Source: Candidatus Kaiserbacteria bacterium RIFCSPHIGHO2_01_FULL_53_31 (GTDB lineage: Bacteria; Patescibacteriota; Minisyncoccia; Phycocordibacterales; Phycocordibacteraceae). Taken from it: a stretch of DNA of 64,000 bases. The stretch spans positions 14,254 through 78,253 of the forward strand of contig MFKU01000010.1 of assembly GCA_001781095.1 (NCBI GenBank). Direction: 5' to 3'. Below, one piece after another: positions 4,378-58,351 of this stretch (the first letter of the stretch is position 1; every line of letters begins with the position of its first letter). The translations under genes and the position numbers were made by a program. A model generated the notes under the pieces. The model saw nothing but the letters and a program-made list of their open reading frames with translations, made no database searches and was not told the origin of the DNA.

Positions 4378-5493
4378 TTAAAGCCCTTCGCTCTTTAAGT
4401 CCTCAATTGCTTTGTGCGCCTTACTCGAGAGCTTATGCGGAAGCGCCGCTTCGAGACGGATGATAAGATCGCCCCTCGATTCCGCTCGGGGTGAACCACC
4501 AAGAGGAACGCCCTTGCCGCGTATGCGCAGTAATTCCTCCGCGCGTTTCATCGGAGGGATCTTAACCTCGAGTACCTTCCCTTCCAAAGTCTCAATCGGG
4601 ACCGTGGTGCCGAGGAGCGCATCGGTAAGCTTGACCGGCAGATCCATCATGAGATTTGATTCCTCACGACGGAAGACTGGATGCGGCTTCACGTGCACCT
4701 TCACATAGAGATCTCCAGCGATACCGCCTTTCACCGCCTCGCCCTGCTGCGGGAGACGAATCATCTCGCCGTTGTCTATACCAGCCGGAATGGAGATTTG
4801 AATTTCTTGTTCCTGGCGTCTCACACCGCGGCCTTTGCATCCCTCGCACTTCTCCTTCGGGATCCTGCCGCTGCCCTCGCAGACCGTGCAGGCACGAACG
4901 CTGGTGAATTGTCCAAGGAGCGAGTTGCGCGTCTCATGCACGCGACCGCTGCCCGAGCAGGTAGCGCAGGTCTCGAGATCGGTACCGCGCTTCGCGCCGT
5001 TCCCTCCGCACACTTCACAGACCGAGACCTTCGCGATGAGCACTTTGCGCGCGGTGCCAAACACCGCATCCTTAAATGAGATTTCGACATCGATGGAGAT
5101 ATCACGTCCTCGTGCTACGCCTCGAGGTGTACCCCCGCGAGAGCTGCTAAATATGTCGCCGAAAATATCTCCGAAATCGAATTCCATTCCGCCCTGACCG
5201 AATCCCTGCTGGAATTGGCTGAAATCGAATCCGCCGAATCCTTGTCCTGCTTGCCCCGAGTCTGTCGAGGAACCGTGCCCGCCGGCAAATGCCTGACCAT
5301 ACGTGTCATATTCGCGGCGCTTCTTATCGTCGCTCAAGACGGAATACGCCTCCGTAATCTCCTTAAACTTTGACTCGTCGGTACCGCCTTTGTCGGGATG
5401 GTACTTGTGCGCGAGCTTCCGAAACGCTTTCTTAATATCGTCCTGCGACGCTTTCTTATCGACCCCAAGTACTTTGTAGTAATCTTTTGTCAT
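4378..5493 (-). CDS. dnaJ: chaperone DnaJ
   Basis: J domain with HPD (KYHPDK), Gly-rich linker, four CxxCxGxG zinc-finger repeats. Confidence 0.93.
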
Positions 5494-36380: not shown

Positions 36381-36404
36381 CAGAAGCGATAGAGGAGGTG
36401 TGGC

Positions 36405-36470
36405 ATGTGGCGATTACTCGTTGTGTTGCTTCTGGGAATATTGTGGCTTCTGCATGTCCCGGAAGCGTGA
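36405..36470 (+). CDS. 21-aa hydrophobic peptide, SD-led
   Basis: AGGAGGTG then ATG: MWRLLVVLLLGILWLLHVPEA. Confidence 0.3.
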   Translation: MWRLLVVLLLGILWLLHVPEA

Positions 36471-36604
36471 GCTATTCGCTCGGCAGGTGAACCCTGCCGA
36501 GCGAATTCTGTCATTGTTGTTGAAGCTTGCTATTTCACACGTGAAAGATATAGTGCTGAACGGACCGCGTTCACAAAAAACAGACCAGAACCGAGGAGGT
36601 GGTC

Positions 36605-36895
36605 ATGTGTGAGGAAATGGGCAACAAGAATAACGGGTACACGCGAGATCTCGCGACAGAGATCGCGCAGGATCTCGACATTCCCGTAGATAGCGTGCTG
36701 ACAGCGCTTGGACTGAAATACGATGTCGAGGATGTCATCATCAGACGGAATCTCGACCGAGCGACGACGAAAGAAAAGGTGCGAGCGCTGCACGAGAGTT
36801 GTCGGCGCGGTAGCGAGACCGAATCAGTCGCTATCCGCAGATTCGCCGATGTCGTCCTAAAACAAGAGGCCGCGCTTCGAGGCGCATGTCTCTGA
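36605..36895 (+). CDS. small hypothetical protein (96 aa), SD-led
   Basis: GAGGAGGTGG 5 nt upstream of ATG (MCEEMGNKNNGY...). Confidence 0.5.
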   Translation: MCEEMGNKNNGYTRDLATEIAQDLDIPVDSVLTALGLKYDVEDVIIRRNLDRATTKEKVRALHESCRRGSETESVAIRRFADVVLKQEAALRGACL

Positions 36896-36911: not shown

Positions 36912-37097
36912 ATGTACCAAACACACGAAGATACGAAACGGCGGATTCTCAGAGGCAAGCTAGCGCTTGCGCGTAGCGTCCGAAAGGCTGCGTATGAGGC
37001 AAGTTCGGGCATTATCTACAACCTCGAGGTCGAGCTACGGCTACTCGGAAACGGTCTGACGAGACCGCGTGCACGAAACAAACGGAAAACGGACTAG
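36912..37097 (+). CDS. small basic hypothetical protein (61 aa), SD-led
   Basis: AAAGGAGGG upstream of the ATG. Confidence 0.45.
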   Translation: MYQTHEDTKRRILRGKLALARSVRKAAYEASSGIIYNLEVELRLLGNGLTRPRARNKRKTD

Positions 37098-37154
37098 AAC
37101 CGGATCGGCGTTCGTATCACTGCGTACGCCGACCCTCACCATTTTATCGGCGGG

Positions 37155-37379
37155 GTGGTGTATGATCACATCTGGAGGAAAATTGCTATGATTCTGACAC
37201 GAACAGAGCGAAGACCATTCATCAAACCCAGCAATCGGTTCTCCCGGCGTCACCAGCTGCTCATTCTCAATCTGCCAAAGGTCCCACTCCAGGATCGTTT
37301 GCGCGCAGTAGGCATCGTAGTCTGGAACAAGCTTCGCGTTCGTTGGGACAGCCTCATGTGCGCGCTCGGTTGGAGTTGA
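37155..37379 (+). CDS. small hypothetical protein (74 aa)
   Basis: Last ORF before the cassette terminator; weaker SD (GGGGTGGTG). Confidence 0.35.
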   Translation: MVYDHIWRKIAMILTRTERRPFIKPSNRFSRRHQLLILNLPKVPLQDRLRAVGIVVWNKLRVRWDSLMCALGWS

Positions 37380-37395
37380 ACCGGTATAGGCTCAC

Positions 37396-37433
37396 GGAAG
37401 GCCCTCGGGACACCGTGGGCTTTCCTTTTTTGT
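37396..37433 (+). terminator. strong rho-independent terminator ending the small-ORF cassette
   Basis: GGAAGGCCC...GGGCTTTCC followed by TTTTTTGTT. Confidence 0.65.
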
Positions 37434-37580
37434 TGGCAACAATAATTATCCCCACCCAACTTGCGTCTTATCGGCATTTCTGTCATACTAATCTCACTCG
37501 CAGAGTATTAGAGCTTCGCAGCGTCCACAAGACCTCAAAGTGTTCAGTTTCGGCGAGGTTAATTAAGTTAAATCCAATTC

Positions 37581-43444: not shown

Positions 43445-45139
43445 TTAAGTTCCGATGAAGGAGAGTCGAACTGATAGCGCCGCACACACCGCTTGTGCAC
43501 CGGCGACTGCGGCCGCATCTCCCGCGGCTTCTGCTCTGCGTAAATCCTCTACTGCTTTTTGATACGCCTCGCGGATAACCGCTGATTCAAAGGCGTGCAG
43601 AAGTTCGTCCGCCGCCGTCTCTAACGGGTCCTCGCCGCATGCTTGTTCCGCCTCAAATACGGCAGACTCGGGGAGGGTCTCGAGAGGAGGCACCTGAACT
43701 CCAGTAATTCGAGCGTACTCTGCTTCTATACGTCTGGCAAGGGGGGTATCGGGATAAGCGCAGAGTGCACCAAGGAGTTGCAGCTCGCGCGTCTCACGTG
43801 CAGAGGTGCGAGGTGTGAGGTTTGAAATGCGAGAAGACGTGCCATCATCCCTCATGCCTCGCACCTCATGCCTCGTATGTGAAAGCGTTTCGCGAACCGC
43901 TTCGGTCGAGAGTCCGAGCGAGCGAGCCGCAACCTGCAAGAAATGTTCGCGCTCCATCGGGCTCTTCATCGCGGCGATGAGAGGCAACACGACCGTCTCG
44001 GCCGTGCGCACCAATCGATGAGGATCAGCTTCTTTTTCAGAAAGTACCGAAAGAAAAAATTCGACAATGGGTTTCGCCGCTTTCACTCGTGCTGAAAAAT
44101 CATTGTGATCTTCAGAAATTAGATCTGCCGGATCTTTTCCTTGTGGGAGTCGTACCGCCTTGACTCGCAATCCTTCGCGAAGTGCGAGTTGCGCCGACTT
44201 CGCCGTCGCGGCGAGCCCCGCGGTATCGGCGTCGAGCACGAGCATCAAGTTCTCGCTGTAGCGCTTCATGAGCGCCACATGCTTCTCCGTGAGTGCCGTA
44301 CCAGAGAGTGCCACAGCATTCTCAAAGCCAGCTTGGTGCGCGTGGAGCACATCCATCTGACCCTCGACAAGGAGTGTGAATCCCCGCGTGCGAATCGCAT
44401 CCTTCGCTCGATCAAGTGCGAAAAGAATTTCAGACTTATGATAGAGCGCGGTCTCAGGACTATTTAAATATTTCGCTGGTTCGTCTGCCGACAAAGCTCT
44501 GCCAGTAAAGGCGACGACACGCCCGACAACATCACGTATCGGGAACATCAGCCGATTGCGAAAGCGATCATAATAGGTGCCCTTTTTCCCATCGGCCTCT
44601 TTAATTAATCCTGCAGCGAGCAATTCTTCAATAGTGAAATTCTCCGCCGTCATTGCTTCAAGCAATGCGCGCCACGCATCGGGCGCATAGCCAAGACCCC
44701 AGATCGTACGCGTATCATCCGCGAGTCCGCGACTCTTTGCATATGCCTTAGCAATACTCTCGGGAAAATTTCCCTCATACCACCTCGCCGCCCGTTGCAT
44801 TACCTCTCGCAGCCGTTCTTTCTTCGACGTCGCCTCGTCGCCCGCTTTACCCCGAGCGAAGTCGAGGAGCACTCCCGCCTTTTCTGCGAGAATCTTCAGT
44901 GCACCTTTAAAGTCAACCCCATCAATTTTCTGAACAAACGAAAATATGTCGCCGCCCTCGTCACAGCCGAAGCAATGCCACGACCCGCGCTCCACGCTCA
45001 CGTGGAAACTGGGCGTCTTCTCTTTATGAAAGGGGCACAATCCCATCATCGACTTCCCTGCCCGCACGAGCTTCACGTGCGGACTGACGATATCGATAAT
45101 CGAGAGACGGTCTTTAATCTCGGAAACAGAGTCAGTCAT
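43445..45139 (-). CDS. dnaG: DNA primase
   Basis: Zinc ribbon CPFHKEKTPSFHV...CFGC, TOPRIM domain. Confidence 0.92.
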   Translation of the reverse strand: MTDSVSEIKDRLSIIDIVSPHVKLVRAGKSMMGLCPFHKEKTPSFHVSVERGSWHCFGCDEGGDIFSFVQKIDGVDFKGALKILAEKAGVLLDFARGKAGDEATSKKERLREVMQRAARWYEGNFPESIAKAYAKSRGLADDTRTIWGLGYAPDAWRALLEAMTAENFTIEELLAAGLIKEADGKKGTYYDRFRNRLMFPIRDVVGRVVAFTGRALSADEPAKYLNSPETALYHKSEILFALDRAKDAIRTRGFTLLVEGQMDVLHAHQAGFENAVALSGTALTEKHVALMKRYSENLMLVLDADTAGLAATAKSAQLALREGLRVKAVRLPQGKDPADLISEDHNDFSARVKAAKPIVEFFLSVLSEKEADPHRLVRTAETVVLPLIAAMKSPMEREHFLQVAARSLGLSTEAVRETLSHTRHEVRGMRDDGTSSRISNLTPRTSARETRELQLLGALCAYPDTPLARRIEAEYARITGVQVPPLETLPESAVFEAEQACGEDPLETAADELLHAFESAVIREAYQKAVEDLRRAEAAGDAAAVAGAQAVCAALSVRLSFIGT

Positions 45140-45230
45140 GCAGCCAGTCTACCGCGCCGCAAAAGCATTTGACAACAGCCGTCCGTATGTTAATGTGCTT
45201 GCGGGGTTGAGATCCTAAAGGAGGTTACAT

Positions 45231-45413
45231 ATGATGAGTAGAAGAAAACGTTTTATGCTCGTTTCTGGCGCACTGCTTGTTGGTGCGACCATCGGCATCG
45301 CACTCGACACCGTGACTGGGACTGACACTAGTCAGTTGGGATGGAGGTGGCTTGTTCATGACCTCTATCTCATGACGTGGGGTTCTGTCATCATGGCTGT
45401 GGTTCTCCGGTAA
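45231..45413 (+). CDS. small membrane hypothetical protein (60 aa), SD-led
   Basis: AAAGGAGGT 7 nt upstream of the ATG; two hydrophobic segments. Confidence 0.4.
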   Translation: MMSRRKRFMLVSGALLVGATIGIALDTVTGTDTSQLGWRWLVHDLYLMTWGSVIMAVVLR

Positions 45414-45437: not shown

Positions 45438-45473
45438 AGGGCGAGAGGCCAGCGGGTCCCTCGCCCTTTTCCT
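45438..45473 (+). terminator. terminator hairpin followed by a separate perfect 19-bp palindrome (45473-45491)
   Basis: GGGCGAGAGG...CCTCGCCC then TTTTCCTG; then GAGGATATC-TGA-GATATCCTC. Confidence 0.45.
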
Positions 45474-45520
45474 GAGGATATCTGATATCCTCAAATAACT
45501 CCGAGTTTCCGCGTTGTTTA

Positions 45521-45583
45521 CTTTTTGTAATGAATTGTTAGAGCGTCCGGCTTGGACGGAAGCTGTAGCTCGTGCGTTCGGCG
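45521..45583. repeat. degenerate duplicate of the rpoC 3' end (direct repeat, copy A)
   Basis: 24/24 identity to 46334-46357 (spanning stop plus 16 nt of 3' UTR), then ~80 percent identity for ~40 nt; reads ...AERTSYSFRPSRTL* against the true rpoC ...AERTSFNIRPSRTL*. Confidence 0.75.
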
Positions 45584-45597
45584 GGAATACCGTGGCA

Positions 45598-45993
45598 TTA
45601 TCGCTTCTTAGCGTTTCTGGAGTGTGACTTGAGCCAGGTAGCAATTACCGCGGCCTCAATCTTATCGGTTGTCACAGACAATACAAACGTCTCAACTGCC
45701 TTGTTCGTCGCGGTCAATACATGTCCATTTACAAAGAGAAACCGCGCGCACGCGGCAATACCCGTTCTCTTATTTCCATCCACAAATACGTGATAATTAA
45801 CGACGGCTTCGAGATAGACTGCCGCCTTTATAAATAGGTCGGGGTAGAGGTCTCGCCCGCCGAACGTAGCGCGCGGCTTGTTGGCGGCTGCAGCCAGGAG
45901 ATGCGGATCACGGACGCCATGGGAGCCGCCGGTCGCATCGATAACCTCAGAGTGGATAACGAGAATCGACTCTGCGGTAAGATACCGAATCAT
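45598..45993 (-). CDS. doc: Doc-family (Fic fold) toxin
   Basis: Fic/Doc motif HVFVDGNKRTG. Confidence 0.8.
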   Translation of the reverse strand: MIRYLTAESILVIHSEVIDATGGSHGVRDPHLLAAAANKPRATFGGRDLYPDLFIKAAVYLEAVVNYHVFVDGNKRTGIAACARFLFVNGHVLTATNKAVETFVLSVTTDKIEAAVIATWLKSHSRNAKKR

Positions 45994-46229
45994 TTTTTTG
46001 CAAGTGCTTCAAGCGCAGGACGATATCGTTTAATGAAACGACTCGTCCAGTCGAGCAGCTCAGTATCGATCATAGGCGCAGGATGCGACACTAAAAACCG
46101 TCGATGCTTTTCATCAATATCAAGCGCAAGCGGAGTCCCATGCCTGATGCCGAGAGCCTTTAGGGACCGCCTCGGAATCACAACAGCAATTGACGAACCG
46201 ACCTTAATTGCTTTTTGAAATGTTGCCAT
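45990..46229 (-). CDS. AbrB/MazE-fold antitoxin (Phd-equivalent)
   Basis: KVGSSIAVVIPRRSLKALGI swapped-hairpin signature; 4-nt overlap with doc. Confidence 0.65.
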   Translation of the reverse strand: MATFQKAIKVGSSIAVVIPRRSLKALGIRHGTPLALDIDEKHRRFLVSHPAPMIDTELLDWTSRFIKRYRPALEALAKK

Positions 46230-46349
46230 TTTCGTAAAGATTATTGATTATAACGCCATTATAATCGTTTGGACTGAGATGTCAACCGCTTCTTAATCTC
46301 CTGTACCGTATCCCGCTCCTGCGATGTTGATCTTTTTTGTAATGAATTG

Positions 46350-49300
46350 TTAGAGCGTTCTGCTTGGGCGGATGTTGAAGCTCGTGCGCTCTGCAGGGAT
46401 CGGCGCGGGGCGCTCGGCCTGAAGCTTCGCGATGTGTGCGAACTTTTTGCTTCCTGAGAATCCTGTGCCCGCAGGGATCAAGCGTCCGAGAATCACGTTC
46501 TCCTTGAGGCCGCGGAGACGATCCACACTGCCACGGAGCGCGGCATTGATGAGGATCTTCGTGGTCTGTTCGAACGAGGCGGCCGAGAGGAAGGATCGGC
46601 GAGAAAGCGCACTCTCCTTGATACCGAGCACAATCTCTTCGCTCTTCGGCGGCAGCTTGTTTGCTACATCCATTTCCTTCACCGCCTTTTCAAATTCCCA
46701 ATCCTCGACGACATCGCCGACTGAGTAGTCCGTGTCACCAGTGTTTGTAATCTTCACACGCGAGAACATCTGCTTCACCACCACTTCGAGGTGTTTGCGC
46801 GAGACGGACGCGCCCTGAAGCTCGTAGATCTTTGACGCTTCGGCGATGATATATTCCTGCACCACGGAGCGTCCCGCATACTCGAAGAGATCATCGAGAT
46901 CTGCCGAACCGTCGGTAAGGACCTGTCCCTTCACCACCGCATCACCCGCCCTCACCAAAGGCACACGTGGATACGGCGCGAGATATTCGTAGACTGAGCC
47001 GTCCTTCTTCCCTTGTCCGGCTGATGGTGCGACTACGACCACTTTCTCACGGCCTGCCTCTTTGATCTCGGTCACGAGACCATCGGATTTCGAGATAACT
47101 GCCGGATTTTTTGGTGAGCGTTTCTCAAAGACTTCTTCGACGCGCGGCAAACCGCTCGTGATATCGCCGCCGATCGACGCCACGCCGCCAGCATGGAAGG
47201 TGCGCATCGTGAGTTGCGTGCCCGGCTCGCCGATCGCTTGTGCGGCCACGGTGCCGACCGCTTCGCCCAAGTCGACAAGTTCTTGCGTCGTGAGGTCCAT
47301 ACCGTAACACGTCTGGCAGACGCCATACCTCGTCTCGCACGACATCGGTGAACGAGCAACGACCGATGACACCGACGCTGCGGCAGAAAGCGCCTCAGCA
47401 TCACCTGCCGAGAGGTATTGTCCGCGCTTGAAGAGCACCGTTCCATCGGCATCTTTTACATCATCTGCGAGCACGCGTCCGCGCAAGACTTCAGCGTAGT
47501 CGATCTGAATACCCGAGAAACTGGTACGATTGATATTCACGCCACGCTTCGTGCCGCAATCTTTTTCTGTCACGATAGAATCCTGCGCTACATCGAAGAG
47601 ACGGCGCGTGAGATATCCGGCCTTCGCGGTGCCAAGCGCCGTGTCGGTGAGGCCTTTGCGCGCGCCGTGTGTGGACATGAAGTATTCAATCGGGTTAAGG
47701 CCTTCAGAGAAGGAGGACGCGATCGGCACTTCGATAGTTTCTCCAGCGGTGTTCTGGATGAGACCTTTCATACCAGCCATCTGTGTCAAGTTGCCCATCG
47801 AGCCGCGAGCACCACTTCTCACCATGTCGGCGACCGAACCCATTGGATTCAACTCGAGAGCGACTTGCTCCTCGACTTCCTGCTTGGCGCCCTGCCAGAT
47901 CTCGATCGCCATGCGGCGTTTTTCCTCCGGCGCGAGAAGACCATTCTGGAAATCTTCTTCAATCTTCGCGACTTTAGCATTGGCCGCTGCGATGATGCGC
48001 GGCTTCTCCTTAGGCACAGCAACATCGTCGATAGCCCAGGAGACGCCGGATTTCGTTGCATACTCGAAACCGAATCGCTTGACCTTGTTCACAATATTCG
48101 GGACGGCATCGATGCCGTAGCGAAAGATGCAGTCATTCACGATGCGTGCGAGCACTTTCTTGGTAATCGTGTCGCCGATAAAAGGATAGTCAGACGGGAG
48201 TACGGTGTTGAAGAGCAGTTTCCCGACGGTCGTCTCGAAGACATGTCCCTCGAAGGCCGCGTACTTCTCCTTCCCCGCTACCGGCAGCACCTTGATCTTC
48301 GCCCGTCGGTCGATGGCCCCGTATTCGGACGCGAGAATAGCGGCATTCGGTGAGGCGAAATATTCGCCTTCGCCCTTTGCGCCATCCACCGCCTTGGTGA
48401 GCCAGTAGACGCCGAGAATAATATCGAGCGGCTTTCCGGTAAGCACGATGATGTCGCCCGAGCCCGGTTTCAAGATATTTTTATTTGCACTCATCACGTT
48501 CTTTGCTTCCCACTGCGCTTCTTCTGAGAGCGGAAGATGCACGGCCATCTGGTCGCCATCGAAGTCCGCGTTGAATGCGTTACAGACGAGCGGGTGCAGC
48601 TGGATAGCATCGCCCTCGATGAGCCGCGGGCGGAATGCTTGGATACCCTGGCGGTGAAGCGTTGGCGCGCGGTTTAGGAGCACGTATTTCCCCGCAATAG
48701 CCTCTTCGAGAATTTCCCACACTTCAGACACGCCGTCTTCGATGAGGCGTCCTGCACCGCGGATATTGAAGGCCAGTTCGCGTGAGAGGAGTCCCGCGAT
48801 GACGAACGGACGGAAGAGCTCGAGCGCCATGTGCTTCGGCAGACCGCATTCGTCGAGCTCGAGATCAGGACCGACGACGATCACCGATCGGCCCGAGTAG
48901 TCGACACGCTTACCGAGCAAGTTCTGGCGGAAGTAGCCCTGCTTCCCTTTCAGATAGTCAGCGAGCGACTTGAGCGGTCGGCGCTGCGCCGCCGTGAGCG
49001 CACCTCCCGAGGCGCTGCCCTTGCGAATAGAGTTGTCGAGGAGCGCATCCACCGCTTCCTGCAAAATGCGTTTCTCATTGCGCAGGATGACTTCCGGCGC
49101 GTGGATGTCGAGCAGCTTCTTAAGACGATTATTGCGATTGATGACGCGGCGATACAAGTCGTTCACGTCTGAGGTCGCGTGGCGGCCGCCTTCGAGTGCG
49201 ACCATCGGGCGGAGCGCCGGCGGGATGATCGGGATGCGCGTGAGGAAGAGCCATTCGGGTCGAATATGCGACGCGATAAGACCGGCGATGAGCGAGAGAC

Positions 49301-50069
49301 GCTTCGCGAGCTTTTCGCGCTCTGCGGCACCTGCCTTTTCATAGCGAGCAAGCAACGTCTTCTCGAGCTCCTTGATATCAAGCGCGCGGAAAATATCATA
49401 AATGGCCTCCGCGCCGATACGCGCTTCGAAGAGGCCTCCGTACTTGACCGAGTAGCGATGATACTCGAGCTCATCGAGCACCTTGCCGATGACGACGCCT
49501 TCGATCTCGGCCTTTGCGAGCGTCATCTTCACCTTCAGTGCATCGCGCTCCTTATCGCCAGTAATGGATTTGTACTTGGACTTGTATTCGCTCTCCAGTT
49601 CGGCGAGGAGACGTTTCTTCTCCTCCTCGGCAATTTTAGTAATGATATAGCCCGCGAAATAGATGACTTTCTCAACGTCCGCTGCTGAAGCACCAAGAAT
49701 AAGCGCCATGCGCGACGGCACACTGCGGAGGAACCAGATATGCGCGACGGGCGTACAGAGCTCGATATGCCCCATGCGCTCACGACGCACGATCGAGCGC
49801 GTTATCTCGACACCGCATTTATCGCAGACGATCCCTTTATAGCGGATACCTTTGTACTTGCCGCAGTAACATTCGTAGTCCTTCTCGGGGCCGAATATCT
49901 TTTCGTCGAAGAGCCCGTGTTTCTCGGAGCGTTGCGTGCGGTAATTGATGGTCTCCGGCTTGGTGACCTCGCCGCTCGACCACGCGAGAATGCGTTCCGG
50001 CGATGCGAGCGCGAGACGCAGACCATTCCAGGTGTCTCGTAGCGGAAGTTTTCGGGGAGTGAATGCCAT
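46350..50069 (-). CDS. rpoC: DNA-directed RNA polymerase subunit beta'
   Basis: Zn-binding CxxC, NADFDGD catalytic motif; 1239 aa. Confidence 0.95.
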   Translation of the reverse strand: MAFTPRKLPLRDTWNGLRLALASPERILAWSSGEVTKPETINYRTQRSEKHGLFDEKIFGPEKDYECYCGKYKGIRYKGIVCDKCGVEITRSIVRRERMGHIELCTPVAHIWFLRSVPSRMALILGASAADVEKVIYFAGYIITKIAEEEKKRLLAELESEYKSKYKSITGDKERDALKVKMTLAKAEIEGVVIGKVLDELEYHRYSVKYGGLFEARIGAEAIYDIFRALDIKELEKTLLARYEKAGAAEREKLAKRLSLIAGLIASHIRPEWLFLTRIPIIPPALRPMVALEGGRHATSDVNDLYRRVINRNNRLKKLLDIHAPEVILRNEKRILQEAVDALLDNSIRKGSASGGALTAAQRRPLKSLADYLKGKQGYFRQNLLGKRVDYSGRSVIVVGPDLELDECGLPKHMALELFRPFVIAGLLSRELAFNIRGAGRLIEDGVSEVWEILEEAIAGKYVLLNRAPTLHRQGIQAFRPRLIEGDAIQLHPLVCNAFNADFDGDQMAVHLPLSEEAQWEAKNVMSANKNILKPGSGDIIVLTGKPLDIILGVYWLTKAVDGAKGEGEYFASPNAAILASEYGAIDRRAKIKVLPVAGKEKYAAFEGHVFETTVGKLLFNTVLPSDYPFIGDTITKKVLARIVNDCIFRYGIDAVPNIVNKVKRFGFEYATKSGVSWAIDDVAVPKEKPRIIAAANAKVAKIEEDFQNGLLAPEEKRRMAIEIWQGAKQEVEEQVALELNPMGSVADMVRSGARGSMGNLTQMAGMKGLIQNTAGETIEVPIASSFSEGLNPIEYFMSTHGARKGLTDTALGTAKAGYLTRRLFDVAQDSIVTEKDCGTKRGVNINRTSFSGIQIDYAEVLRGRVLADDVKDADGTVLFKRGQYLSAGDAEALSAAASVSSVVARSPMSCETRYGVCQTCYGMDLTTQELVDLGEAVGTVAAQAIGEPGTQLTMRTFHAGGVASIGGDITSGLPRVEEVFEKRSPKNPAVISKSDGLVTEIKEAGREKVVVVAPSAGQGKKDGSVYEYLAPYPRVPLVRAGDAVVKGQVLTDGSADLDDLFEYAGRSVVQEYIIAEASKIYELQGASVSRKHLEVVVKQMFSRVKITNTGDTDYSVGDVVEDWEFEKAVKEMDVANKLPPKSEEIVLGIKESALSRRSFLSAASFEQTTKILINAALRGSVDRLRGLKENVILGRLIPAGTGFSGSKKFAHIAKLQAERPAPIPAERTSFNIRPSRTL

Positions 50070-57191: not shown

Positions 57192-57220
57192 AAAGTTAGG
57201 ACATCGGATGTCCTAACTTT
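57192..57220. repeat. REP-like palindromic hairpin (left)
   Basis: AAAGTTAGGACATCGGATGTCCTAACTTT; overlaps the transposase stop codon. Confidence 0.7.
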
Positions 57221-57863
57221 TGTATTCCAGATAGTCGCTTTCTTGAGCAAGGCTTGGGTCATGAATAACTTCAACGATTGTCCGCTCATACTCTGACCGC
57301 GTCCCGAGCATTGGATTAAGCACATCGGTCCTAATAATTGACGGGAAATTTCGCACGCCCAAATAATCGAGATGACTGCTCCAGCGATAGTCGAGTAATG
57401 CTTCGAGAGCCTTTTTAGTATTTCTAACCTCGCCCGCGCGCCATTCTGGATGCACATAATCGAGAGGATTGAGATGTATATAAAATGGAATATAGAGAAA
57501 ATGCGCATCACGTTTTATTTGCACCTTGCGATATTTACCCTGCCAGAGAGCACCCGAGCGTTTATGCCGATTATTGAAATATTTTGTATAGCCCATATTA
57601 ATCTTTTGCATAAACAGAGAAATCCCATTCTCGATACGTTCTGTAACGAGCAGATGATAGTGATTCTTCATTAAGCAATACGAATGGATATCGACGAGTT
57701 GTTCACGAGCATGATCTTCGCGCCGCTCATTCAGAATGTAATTCGGCGTCGTGTTGCGATCATTTAAGGCATACAGGTTGTGAATGAAGCGGAGACGGTC
57801 GTGCTTGTCTGTAACGATATCTCGTTTCTCCACCCCACGCCCAATAAGGTGCCAGAATTCCAT
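57213..57863 (-). CDS. Y1 HUH transposase (REP-associated tyrosine transposase / IS200-like)
   Basis: HUH motif NHYHLLV; catalytic tyrosine region GYTKYFN; 216 aa. Confidence 0.7.
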   Translation of the reverse strand: MEFWHLIGRGVEKRDIVTDKHDRLRFIHNLYALNDRNTTPNYILNERREDHAREQLVDIHSYCLMKNHYHLLVTERIENGISLFMQKINMGYTKYFNNRHKRSGALWQGKYRKVQIKRDAHFLYIPFYIHLNPLDYVHPEWRAGEVRNTKKALEALLDYRWSSHLDYLGVRNFPSIIRTDVLNPMLGTRSEYERTIVEVIHDPSLAQESDYLEYKS

Positions 57864-57878
57864 TGCGTCATTATAGCT

Positions 57879-57908
57879 AAAGTTAGGACATCCGATGTCC
57901 TAACTTGT
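57879..57908. repeat. REP-like palindromic hairpin (right, inverted relative to left)
   Basis: AAAGTTAGGACATCCGATGTCCTAACTT; exact reverse complement of the left hairpin, 16 nt upstream of the transposase start. Confidence 0.7.
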
Positions 57909-57978
57909 GCATAATTCATGAGCTGGACAATCCTATCGAGGTCAGACTTACTGTTGCTTGCATCACTGAAAAAGAAAT

Positions 57979-58021
57979 GGATTTTATTCCTGCATAAAAT
58001 TAGAACACCGGAGGTCCAACT
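57979..58021. repeat. degenerate duplicate of the rnr 3' end plus a degenerate REP copy
   Basis: GAAAAAGAAATGGATTTTATTCCTGCATAA reads KEMDFIPA* against rnr KELDFVPA* (26/30 nt); followed by AATTAGAACACCGGAGGTCCAACTTT. Confidence 0.6.
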
Positions 58022-58351
58022 TTACTTTTGCAGTTTTCTTATGAGCATAATCATTTTCTGAATTACCCAAGATAGTCCCCCTGTAGCGCAGGTTACGAAT
58101 ATGAGCATCAACCATTGTATGGAACTAATTGTTTTAATTTCTGATCGGATTGTTCCATTACGCAACGTGTAGGTACAGAGCGTGCCATGCGGCCAAATCG
58201 ACAATTCCATTTTTGCACATCCGCCTTCCTCAAAAAATGAAGATCCGCTATATAGGCAGCGATGCTCCGATATCGGCGTAGCTAATCCCCAAAACATCGC
58301 GAGACCTACGATAAATGCTAACCCACTAATAATTAGACTTAAGCGTGTCAT
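58022..58351 (-). CDS. hypothetical membrane protein (109 aa), low-GC
   Basis: Two TM segments; AT-rich codon usage unlike its neighbours. Confidence 0.4.
   Translation of the reverse strand: MTRLSLIISGLAFIVGLAMFWGLATPISEHRCLYSGSSFFEEGGCAKMELSIWPHGTLCTYTLRNGTIRSEIKTISSIQWLMLIFVTCATGGLSWVIQKMIMLIRKLQK

Follow-up and report, generated by a model that had tools for sequence, protein, structure and literature searches.

The stretch of DNA analysed here, called the window throughout, is 64,000 nucleotides (nt; 64 kb) of contig MFKU01000010.1 from Candidatus Kaiserbacteria bacterium RIFCSPHIGHO2_01_FULL_53_31. Between the genes for RNA polymerase beta' (rpoC) and for primase (dnaG) it carries a small toxin-antitoxin cassette with a Doc toxin, and this cassette is bounded by a direct repeat of the end of rpoC. 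From the anatomy of the locus we infer a recombination scar, left when the host itself, by homologous or illegitimate recombination, took in DNA of a related Kaiserbacterium. Coordinates are positions in the window, and L-numbers are labels of compared loci or contigs. Along the direction of transcription, rpoC is followed by its tail (copy B of the repeat), the stop codon with the core of the repeat, and a 5' remnant of dnaG; then come the promoter, the antitoxin gene and doc; and then an rpoC tail remnant (copy A), again with stop codon and core, the predicted terminator, a small open reading frame (ORF) and dnaG:

46350..50069, minus strand: rpoC (RNA polymerase beta'), ORF of 1239 amino acids (aa), with Pfam RNA_pol_Rpb1_1-5 on the identical gene
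46334..46400, minus strand: repeat copy B, with the functional rpoC tail (46353-46400), its stop codon (46350-52) and 16 nt downstream; core at 46334-46358
46283..46315, minus strand: 5' remnant of dnaG, RDTVQEIKKRL by frame translation, lacking a start codon (hmmsearch E=0.005)
46258..46285, minus strand: predicted cassette promoter, TTGACA-16-TATAAT, 12/12 match to the sigma-70 consensus; its -35 box abuts the dnaG remnant
45990..46229, minus strand: putative antitoxin, 79 aa, AbrB/MazE-fold 'doc_partner', with an ATGA overlap with doc
45598..45993, minus strand: Doc (Fic-fold) toxin, 131 aa (PF02661 E=6e-16; TIGR01550 53.7 bits versus a cut-off of 38.65)
45589..45597, minus strand: filler of 9 nt, TGCCACGGT, separating the doc stop from the rpoC tail remnant; it forms the insert's right-hand junction
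45522..45588, minus strand: repeat copy A, with the displaced rpoC tail remnant (45541-45588, IPAERTSYSFRPSRTL), its stop codon (45538-40) and 16 nt downstream; core at 45522-45546
45438..45494, minus strand: two strong hairpins and a U-rich tract (-38.5 kcal/mol, z=-2.4)
45231..45413, plus strand: 60-aa hydrophobic ORF, part of a native spacer of the 'long' type
43445..45175, minus strand: dnaG primase (coding part 43445-45139) with promoter TTGTCA-18-TAGACT at 45146-45175; conserved right flank of the hotspot described below

The repeat is gapless over 67 nt (45522-45588 and 46334-46400), with 85% identity and a spacing of 812 nt. One small indel lets it reach about 80 nt, weaker similarity continuing for some 20 nt past the gapless part. 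Its local alignment score is 48, versus about 10 +/- 1.3 for shuffled sequence, and only one other family of direct repeats of at least 28 nt within 6 kb was found across the window. Within it lies an identical core of 25 nt, composed of the final 7 nt of rpoC, the TAA stop codon and the 15 nt past it, which occurs exactly twice in the window with 3 mismatches permitted (0 expected). The 48-nt coding arm, that is the last 16 rpoC codons, is identical at 38 of 48 positions (79%). Copy B is the end of the 1239-aa ORF and reads ...IPAERTSFNIRPSRTL before the stop codon; copy A translates as IPAERTSYSFRPSRTL, likewise followed by a stop, and matches a profile of RpoC tails at E=0.0017 (hmmsearch). 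A preliminary description of this DNA had reported the duplication, an arm of about 80% identity, copy B as the true rpoC terminus and an identical core set against diverged arms, and on all these points our results agree with it. The last pattern is not random (P ~0.003 for 25 identical bases given the overall arm divergence of 10/48, by arithmetic from the alignment). The bounds of the repeat differ slightly from those described, and the core, correctly described as identical, has 25 nt where 24 had been given.

The structure is found, base for base, in more than 20 independent contigs of the species from several studies and assemblies (e.g., GCA_001781835.1), and is therefore no assembly artefact. 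An explanation of the repeat as such an artefact, or as a functional duplication in which, for instance, a terminator or regulatory element is reused after the cassette, is highly improbable in our judgement, and is largely refuted by this agreement among assemblies together with the coding arm. In its favour, the region past the stop codon belongs to a conserved family of rpoC terminators (GTATAAAAAGTAAAACGGCGCRGG), and assemblers broke or padded with N at the repeat in some contigs. Against it, 48 of the repeated bases code in frame for the tail of rpoC, for which no regulatory role is conceivable, and neither copy keeps an intact hairpin. Some public assemblies deviate near the rpoC end: L083 has an 11-nt gap (~5300) and L082 extra sequence about 215 nt upstream of the stop (~5393-5427), both then predicting a read-through RpoC of 1258 aa, and in L098 stretches of N coincide exactly with the repeat core and also lie within doc (~470 and ~820). 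We rejected these as biological variants; they look like assembly gaps or errors at or near the repeat.

Beyond copy B, 35 bases past the rpoC stop, lies a feature that the preliminary description had not noted: the sequence CGGGATACGGTACAGGAGATTAAGAAGCGGTTG (46315-46283) translates as RDTVQEIKKRL. DnaG primases have this sequence conserved at their N-terminus, in the pattern M-x-(R/K/T)-DTV-x-EIK-x-RL. The match to a profile built from 68 DnaG N-termini has E=0.005 in what is a small search space. This remnant is unlike the DnaG start of the same genome, MTDSVSEIKDRL, and resembles the DnaG of other species; judged by its translation, it is not derived from the genome's own dnaG. Its presence to the left of the cassette argues that what was duplicated is the rpoC-dnaG junction, more than the rpoC tail, and not an rpoC-specific attachment (att) site. 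The left copy of the junction is truncated a few codons into dnaG, and the right copy begins 16 codons ahead of the rpoC stop. In type, the left one is 'compact', as in species where dnaG starts 5-40 nt after rpoC, and the right one is 'long', with a small ORF; the two are therefore not simple copies of each other. The remnants are short and their individual statistics modest. Codon 12 of dnaG and the -35 box of the cassette promoter may overlap in a TTG, which is only suggestive of microhomology at the joint. Both essential genes remain intact, since a full copy of the end of each is preserved.

The differences between the copies carry information on their history. Tails A and B differ by seven synonymous and three nonsynonymous changes (proportion of synonymous differences, pS, 0.59; of nonsynonymous differences, pN, 0.08). 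The same bias is seen at two other loci described below, in L015 (pS 0.41, pN 0.09) and in the dnaG duplicate of L021 (pS 0.34, pN 0.05), and the pooled deficit of nonsynonymous changes has P=1e-4 under a null in which one copy is constrained and the other decays neutrally. No frameshifts or internal stops were found in the remnants. As the differences are mostly synonymous, the remnants appear to have diverged mostly as functional gene ends, in another lineage. On this evidence we read one of the copies as having come from another lineage. The core is fully identical while neighbouring synonymous sites are 59% diverged, which would fit a crossover or a conversion tract. Moreover, tails A and B both end in RPSRTL, an ending otherwise unseen, and the partner lineage would therefore be a close, unsampled relative.

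The cassette itself spans 45598-46285 (688 nt). We set these bounds because homologous cassettes at other loci share the promoter and operator TTGAC-17-GATTATAATGGCGTTATAAT and end right at the doc stop; the operator-like GATTATAATGGCGTTATAAT at the promoter is conserved among them. As an acquired insert at the 3' end of rpoC the cassette had been correctly described. Its Doc protein scores above the family cut-off and has the catalytic motif HVFVDGNKR (pattern HxFx(D/N)(A/G)NKR). The MazE-like half of the pair is less firm: the antitoxin ORF matches PF04014 with 21.8 bits (cut-off 24.7) and TIGR02609 doc_partner with 28.4 bits (cut-off 55.9), the alignment being full-length, and it is kept as the partner of Doc in relatives. 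Homologous MazE-like/Doc pairs occur at unrelated loci in other genomes of the candidate phyla radiation (CPR), with 68-71% nucleotide identity and Doc proteins at most 75% identical; no Doc relatives were found in viral contigs. Around the closest Doc cassettes elsewhere there are no flanking repeats, these cassettes being wedged tightly between genes. The repeat therefore belongs to the rpoC-dnaG site and not to the cassette family. In two such relatives, L099 (4700-4765) and L105 (4600-4662), the final codons of an upstream glycosyltransferase gene contain the -35 box of the Doc promoter, and the next gene begins 4-8 nt after the doc stop, leaving no spare sequence.

Downstream of copy A, the hairpins at 45438-45494 are likely, from their predicted folding, to terminate transcription of both rpoC and the cassette; past copy B nothing similar is predicted (z=-1.0). 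Transcription of rpoC would thus probably read through the cassette to the terminator past copy A, and the cassette also has its own predicted promoter. The true dnaG lies 380 nt past copy A, with the hairpins and the 60-aa ORF in between. The stop codon of doc is in frame with the displaced rpoC tail remnant (45538-45600, TAA-TGC-CAC-GGT-ATT...), probably by coincidence (a 1-in-3 chance).

We compared the rpoC 3' region with that of 80 other Kaiserbacteria species, in 70 of which the rpoC-dnaG gap could be measured. The order rpoC then dnaG is conserved, and the gap ranges from 5 to 2788 nt (at most 40 nt in 17 species, 41-120 nt in 11, 121-600 nt in 25 and more than 600 nt in 17). Six types of cargo are found in it. 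They include IS200-like Y1 transposases (L004, L006, L017, L063), PaaX_M/Cas2-like genes (L015, L021, L027), HicAB (L009), a ParE toxin-antitoxin pair (L024) and a GNAT acetyltransferase (L064); small membrane ORFs also occur, and the cargo of L031 consists of miscellaneous ORFs. In a tree from RpoC and DnaG the cargo loci are scattered among compact ones, and the insertions are therefore independent events. On these comparisons the rpoC-dnaG interval is a recurrent insertion hotspot. The comparison with related genomes proposed in the preliminary description thus yields both empty sites and other cargo at this position, so that an objection based on the same repeat recurring with no variation in cargo does not hold.

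Many of the cargo loci are bracketed by direct repeats made of local sequence, taken from the rpoC tail (L015, weakly L009), the rpoC terminator (L009, L059, L063, L064), the post-stop or terminator region (L006, L004, L031) or the dnaG promoter or start (L009, L015, L024, L031). No core is common to these repeats between species; those of L006, L009, L015, L024, L031, L059, L063 and L064 differ in sequence and position. The two-remnant layout of the window, with a dnaG remnant, cargo and a second unit, recurs in L015, L009, L024 and L031; the second unit opens with an rpoC-tail remnant in L015 and L009 and with the rpoC terminator in L024 and L031. Profile searches detected the remnants in the window, L015, L021 and L024, and analogous ones are present in L009 and L031. 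Their end points vary, at +2, +12, +21 and about +36-48 into dnaG, and at -33, -44 and -48 from the rpoC stop. Toxin-antitoxin modules are the cargo in three of the five two-remnant loci. The rpoC terminator motif GTATAAAAAGTAAAACGGCGCRGG is found only in the rpoC-dnaG gap within loci of about 12 kb, often on both sides of cargo, and both copies of the window carry its decayed 5' half. What the analysis shows, then, is the anatomy of the window's locus, the remnants' past as functional gene ends in another lineage, and the return of the same layout with different cargo.

Several loci show related structures without being exact counterparts of the window. L021 (7639-8138) has a tandem duplicate of the first 246 nt of dnaG and its upstream region, 90% identical and with no cargo inside, in which the upstream dnaG copy is an intact 76-aa ORF; this is the pattern expected from a donor fragment that ends within dnaG and is joined just upstream of the recipient dnaG. 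L031 (7485-9082) is a multi-unit array between rpoC and dnaG, with the dnaG promoter, ATG and a 9-nt remnant, then two full copies and one partial copy of the rpoC terminator, among which small ORFs are interspersed. In L004 (4500-6151), from its sister species, two terminator copies surround a Y1 transposase. These arrays suggest successive insertions. As a wider observation, a motif resembling a bidirectional terminator, GTATAAAAAGTAAAACGGCGCRGG...CCYGCGCCGTTTT, is conserved 24-190 nt past the rpoC stop in species that include L002, L003, L013, L035, L037, L039, L044, L046, L063 and L065.

The preliminary description had interpreted the locus as site-specific integration of the integrase type into the end of rpoC. 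In this explanation the cassette is an integrase-less remnant of an integrative element, or was mobilized in trans like the cis-mobilizable elements (CIMEs); the 25-nt core would be the crossover site, and an attP arm mimicking the rpoC tail would have restored the gene. Direct repeats with an identical core and diverged arms do bound the insert, and the arm differences are mostly synonymous, as in e14 of icd (PMC13626634). Integrase-less CIMEs flanked by att sites in the 3' ends of protein-coding genes are also well documented (PMC7563491), and our inspection covered 64 kb of the genome. On the other side, a dnaG remnant is unexpected from an rpoC-specific att site, the repeats at the same locus elsewhere are unrelated in sequence and extent, some duplicating dnaG, and the relatives of the cassette have no flanking repeats. 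That no integrase lies in the element is as previously described: we found none between the repeats, in the 33 window ORFs scanned with Pfam, or in any cargo at the locus among the 80 species, including the 17 with gaps of more than 600 nt. Inspection by eye revealed no dif/Xer-like or palindromic recombinase site and no obvious dyad symmetry in the core. Further copies of the core were not encountered anywhere we searched, neither elsewhere in the window nor in the rpoC-dnaG loci of other species, and a 22-mer of the core had no match in metagenome or viral collections (the metagenome collection evidently being without this species). Taken together, the dnaG remnant, the heterogeneous repeats across species, the missing integrase, the restriction of the core to this site and the repeat-free relatives speak against site-specific integration, which we regard as unlikely. 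A core resembling an att site, with diverged arms duplicating a gene end, is insufficient evidence for such integration.

Nor would a protein-coding target be novel, even if that reading were right. Prophage e14 and phage 21 integrate in icd with a replacement gene end, according to a passage of PMC13626634 that cites Hill et al. 1989; ICESt1 and ICESt3 (integrative and conjugative elements) occupy fda, and integrase-less CIMEs and microCIMEs are found in the 3' ends of rpmG, rpsI, fda and rplL (PMC7563491). Our locus is like these in the direct repeat of a gene 3' end, in a C-terminal pseudogene with mostly silent changes and in that an integrase may be lacking, as in CIMEs. Unlike them, it has no integrase-bearing relative among the 80 species and no core common to its occurrences, its duplication includes the 5' end of the downstream gene, and the repeats of other species come from different local sequences.

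A second alternative is that the rpoC-dnaG junction was first duplicated in situ, by slippage or unequal exchange, giving a dead joint of dnaG' and 'rpoC. The cassette would then have landed at this joint by illegitimate recombination, and later allelic replacement of rpoC or dnaG, or gene conversion, would have produced both the divergence and the core. Formally, the junction is duplicated in tandem and the cargo lies precisely where the new joint would be; nowhere else would an insertion leave both genes unharmed. The bare 246-nt tandem duplication of L021, without cargo, fits this course of events, and the similar lengths of remnants across species fit small slippage duplications. Yet at least three steps per lineage would be needed, no species was found with two remnants abutting without cargo, and the two units are not simple copies of each other. 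The excess of pS over pN and the foreign-looking dnaG remnant are unexpected from decay in situ and disfavour this explanation, which we also hold to be improbable.

The explanation that we favour, giving it about an even chance of being correct, is an integrase-independent, homology-driven insertion of DNA from a relative, by a single crossover in the core or by homology-facilitated illegitimate recombination. The first route would be a Campbell-type single crossover in the 25-nt core with a circular or circularized molecule of about 0.8 kb, carrying the cassette and some 150 nt of the relative's rpoC-dnaG junction; it would yield both remnants and the core in one step. In the second, one or two homology-facilitated illegitimate events would be anchored in rpoC or dnaG, and the structure of L021 is what a left-anchored event of this kind would produce. 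The Doc module may persist since recombination from repeat to repeat would delete the cassette and release the toxin (addiction). In such a recombination the circle junction would read tail A, core and AGATCAACATCGC...dnaG remnant, and the empty site tail B, core and GTAAACAACGCGG. Deletion between the repeats would remove the antitoxin gene, and addiction is therefore a reasonable explanation for the frequency of toxin-antitoxin modules among surviving inserts. It is also reasonable to suppose that addiction protects this insert from deletion.

Several points weigh against this homology-driven insertion. The route is reconstructed from anatomy and comparison. All contigs of the species carry the cassette; we found no same-species empty site or circle, exact-protein look-ups for Doc and DnaG giving occupied sites only. 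No donor with the RpoC tail RPSRTL was found among GTDB representatives, nor in a protein search with the RpoC C-terminus, which listed only short fragments and may have missed full-length RpoC. Either of copies A and B may therefore be the native one. (A second metagenome scan with the RpoC C-terminus, swamped by conserved motifs, gave a best match of 87% identity.) The single-crossover route presupposes a circle that already bears a junction fragment, the origin of which is unexplained, and the illegitimate route needs two events for both remnants and does not itself explain the identical core. The starts of the rpoC remnants (-33 to -48) are more alike across species than independent random joins predict. 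The excess of pS over pN could also have come from later replacement of the functional copy by ordinary allelic recombination. Finally, the recombinase search extended over 64 kb of the genome, and a recombinase could have acted in trans.

A bolder extension of the homology-driven insertion, and one we find somewhat less probable than either alternative just weighed, the att site or the in-situ duplication, is that 'homing' minicassettes without an integrase pass between Kaiserbacteria, perhaps between CPR bacteria generally. They would be circles, about 0.8-2 kb in size, that combine a small cargo with a 125-400-nt copy of the rpoC-dnaG junction. Such circles would arise where the two repeats around an occupied site recombine, be taken up by relatives and re-insert through host RecA in a short identical stretch, restoring the two-remnant layout. 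Cargo of the toxin-antitoxin kind would be favoured, since cells that lose it are penalized, and the junction of essential genes would serve as a universal attachment site without a recombinase.

The closest parallel to the favoured insertion lies in effector-immunity arrays of type VI secretion systems (T6SS) and the 'orphan' arrays of Rhs and contact-dependent inhibition (CDI) loci, whose displaced gene 3' ends are attributed, in a passage of PMC5361080 citing de Vries & Wackernagel 2002, Prudhomme et al. 2002 and Meier & Wackernagel 2003, to homology-facilitated illegitimate recombination. Insertion-duplication in natural transformation is a parallel of the same kind. As in those arrays, a conserved flanking gene would serve as homology anchor, the cargo is new, the old gene end is displaced as an ortholog-like remnant, no dedicated recombinase is present, and arrays can build up (here in L031). 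Unlike them, the rpoC-dnaG locus has two essential housekeeping genes as anchors, with remnants of both flanking the cargo. This cargo is not an effector/immunity pair but an addiction module, its host belongs to the CPR, and the mechanism is here deduced from the structure.

The cassette can also be set beside known toxin-antitoxin systems. Like Doc/Phd type II modules it has the Fic motif HxFxDGNKR, a small overlapping upstream gene for a putative antitoxin and a predicted operator over the -10 box that resembles autoregulation; by analogy, it could plausibly keep the DNA on which it sits from being deleted. Chromosomal toxin-antitoxin cassettes, such as those of superintegrons, stabilize dispensable DNA. 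Unlike Doc/Phd, the putative antitoxin is of the AbrB/MazE-fold 'doc_partner' type and not Phd, the locus has neither an attC site nor an integron, and the module is known from sequence. Insertion hotspots flanked by conserved core genes are a general concept in bacterial chromosomes, and here too the same interval carries different small accessory genes, or nothing, across related species. Its scale, however, is very small (0.6-2.8 kb, one to three genes) compared with usual hotspots, and the scars lie inside the flanking genes' own ends.

CPR bacteria (Patescibacteria) have tiny genomes with few recognizable mobile elements, and their acquisition of accessory genes is poorly understood. The locus provides a concrete, recurrent case, in which an interval between two essential conserved genes captures cargo of one to three genes, often toxin-antitoxin modules, with scars that point to recombination with DNA of related lineages rather than to integrases. 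If this is true, conserved gene junctions could act as homology 'landing pads', and addiction modules could lock inserts between direct repeats.

Other features of the gap and of the window deserve mention. In many species the gap holds small ORFs for hydrophobic proteins of 56-104 aa, which run opposite to rpoC and dnaG (window 45231-45413, plus strand; L009 6976-7290 and 8241-8489; L024 6347-6562; L044 2178-2450; L015 7826-7996); none matches a known family, and their sequences are not obviously similar among themselves. Elsewhere in the window, 36400-36895 and 37041-37486 hold two pairs of small adjacent ORFs (70 and 98 aa; 78 and 70 aa) in a layout like that of toxin-antitoxin genes. The three of these four ORFs that were scanned (36599-36895, 37041-37253 and 37250-37486; 36400-36612 fell outside the scan) have no Pfam match.

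The window also contains a gene for an IS200-like Y1 transposase (57213-57863, minus strand; PF01797 E=4.5e-9), flanked by 34-nt palindromic repeats resembling repetitive extragenic palindromes (REP) at 57192-57225 and 57879-57912; a third copy, less well matched, lies at 57996-58029. The whole (57192-58029) looks like a unit of REP and REP-associated tyrosine transposase (RAYT), and the same type of gene is gap cargo in L004, L006, L017 and L063. We rejected these transposases as the cause of the repeats, since the family is not known to make long target duplications.

The PaaX_M/Cas2-like genes (~195 aa) are bracketed on both sides by an imperfect palindrome of about 40 nt, e.g., GGTATCCACACTATGTACCGGTCGGCACATAAGAGTGGATAG, which differs between paralogues. 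The palindromes are 620-685 nt apart, and the units occur at two or more loci per genome (L015 7019-7699 and 11534-12221; L021 6953-7612 and 11632-12326; L027 2347-3010; L024 10164-10858; L019 10089-10782; L032 10570-11261; L038 10670-11392). The ~40-nt 'direct repeats' around these genes were rejected as target duplications, being palindromes carried by that cassette. Either a mobile cassette of one gene or a regulator with a pair of operators would fit these units.

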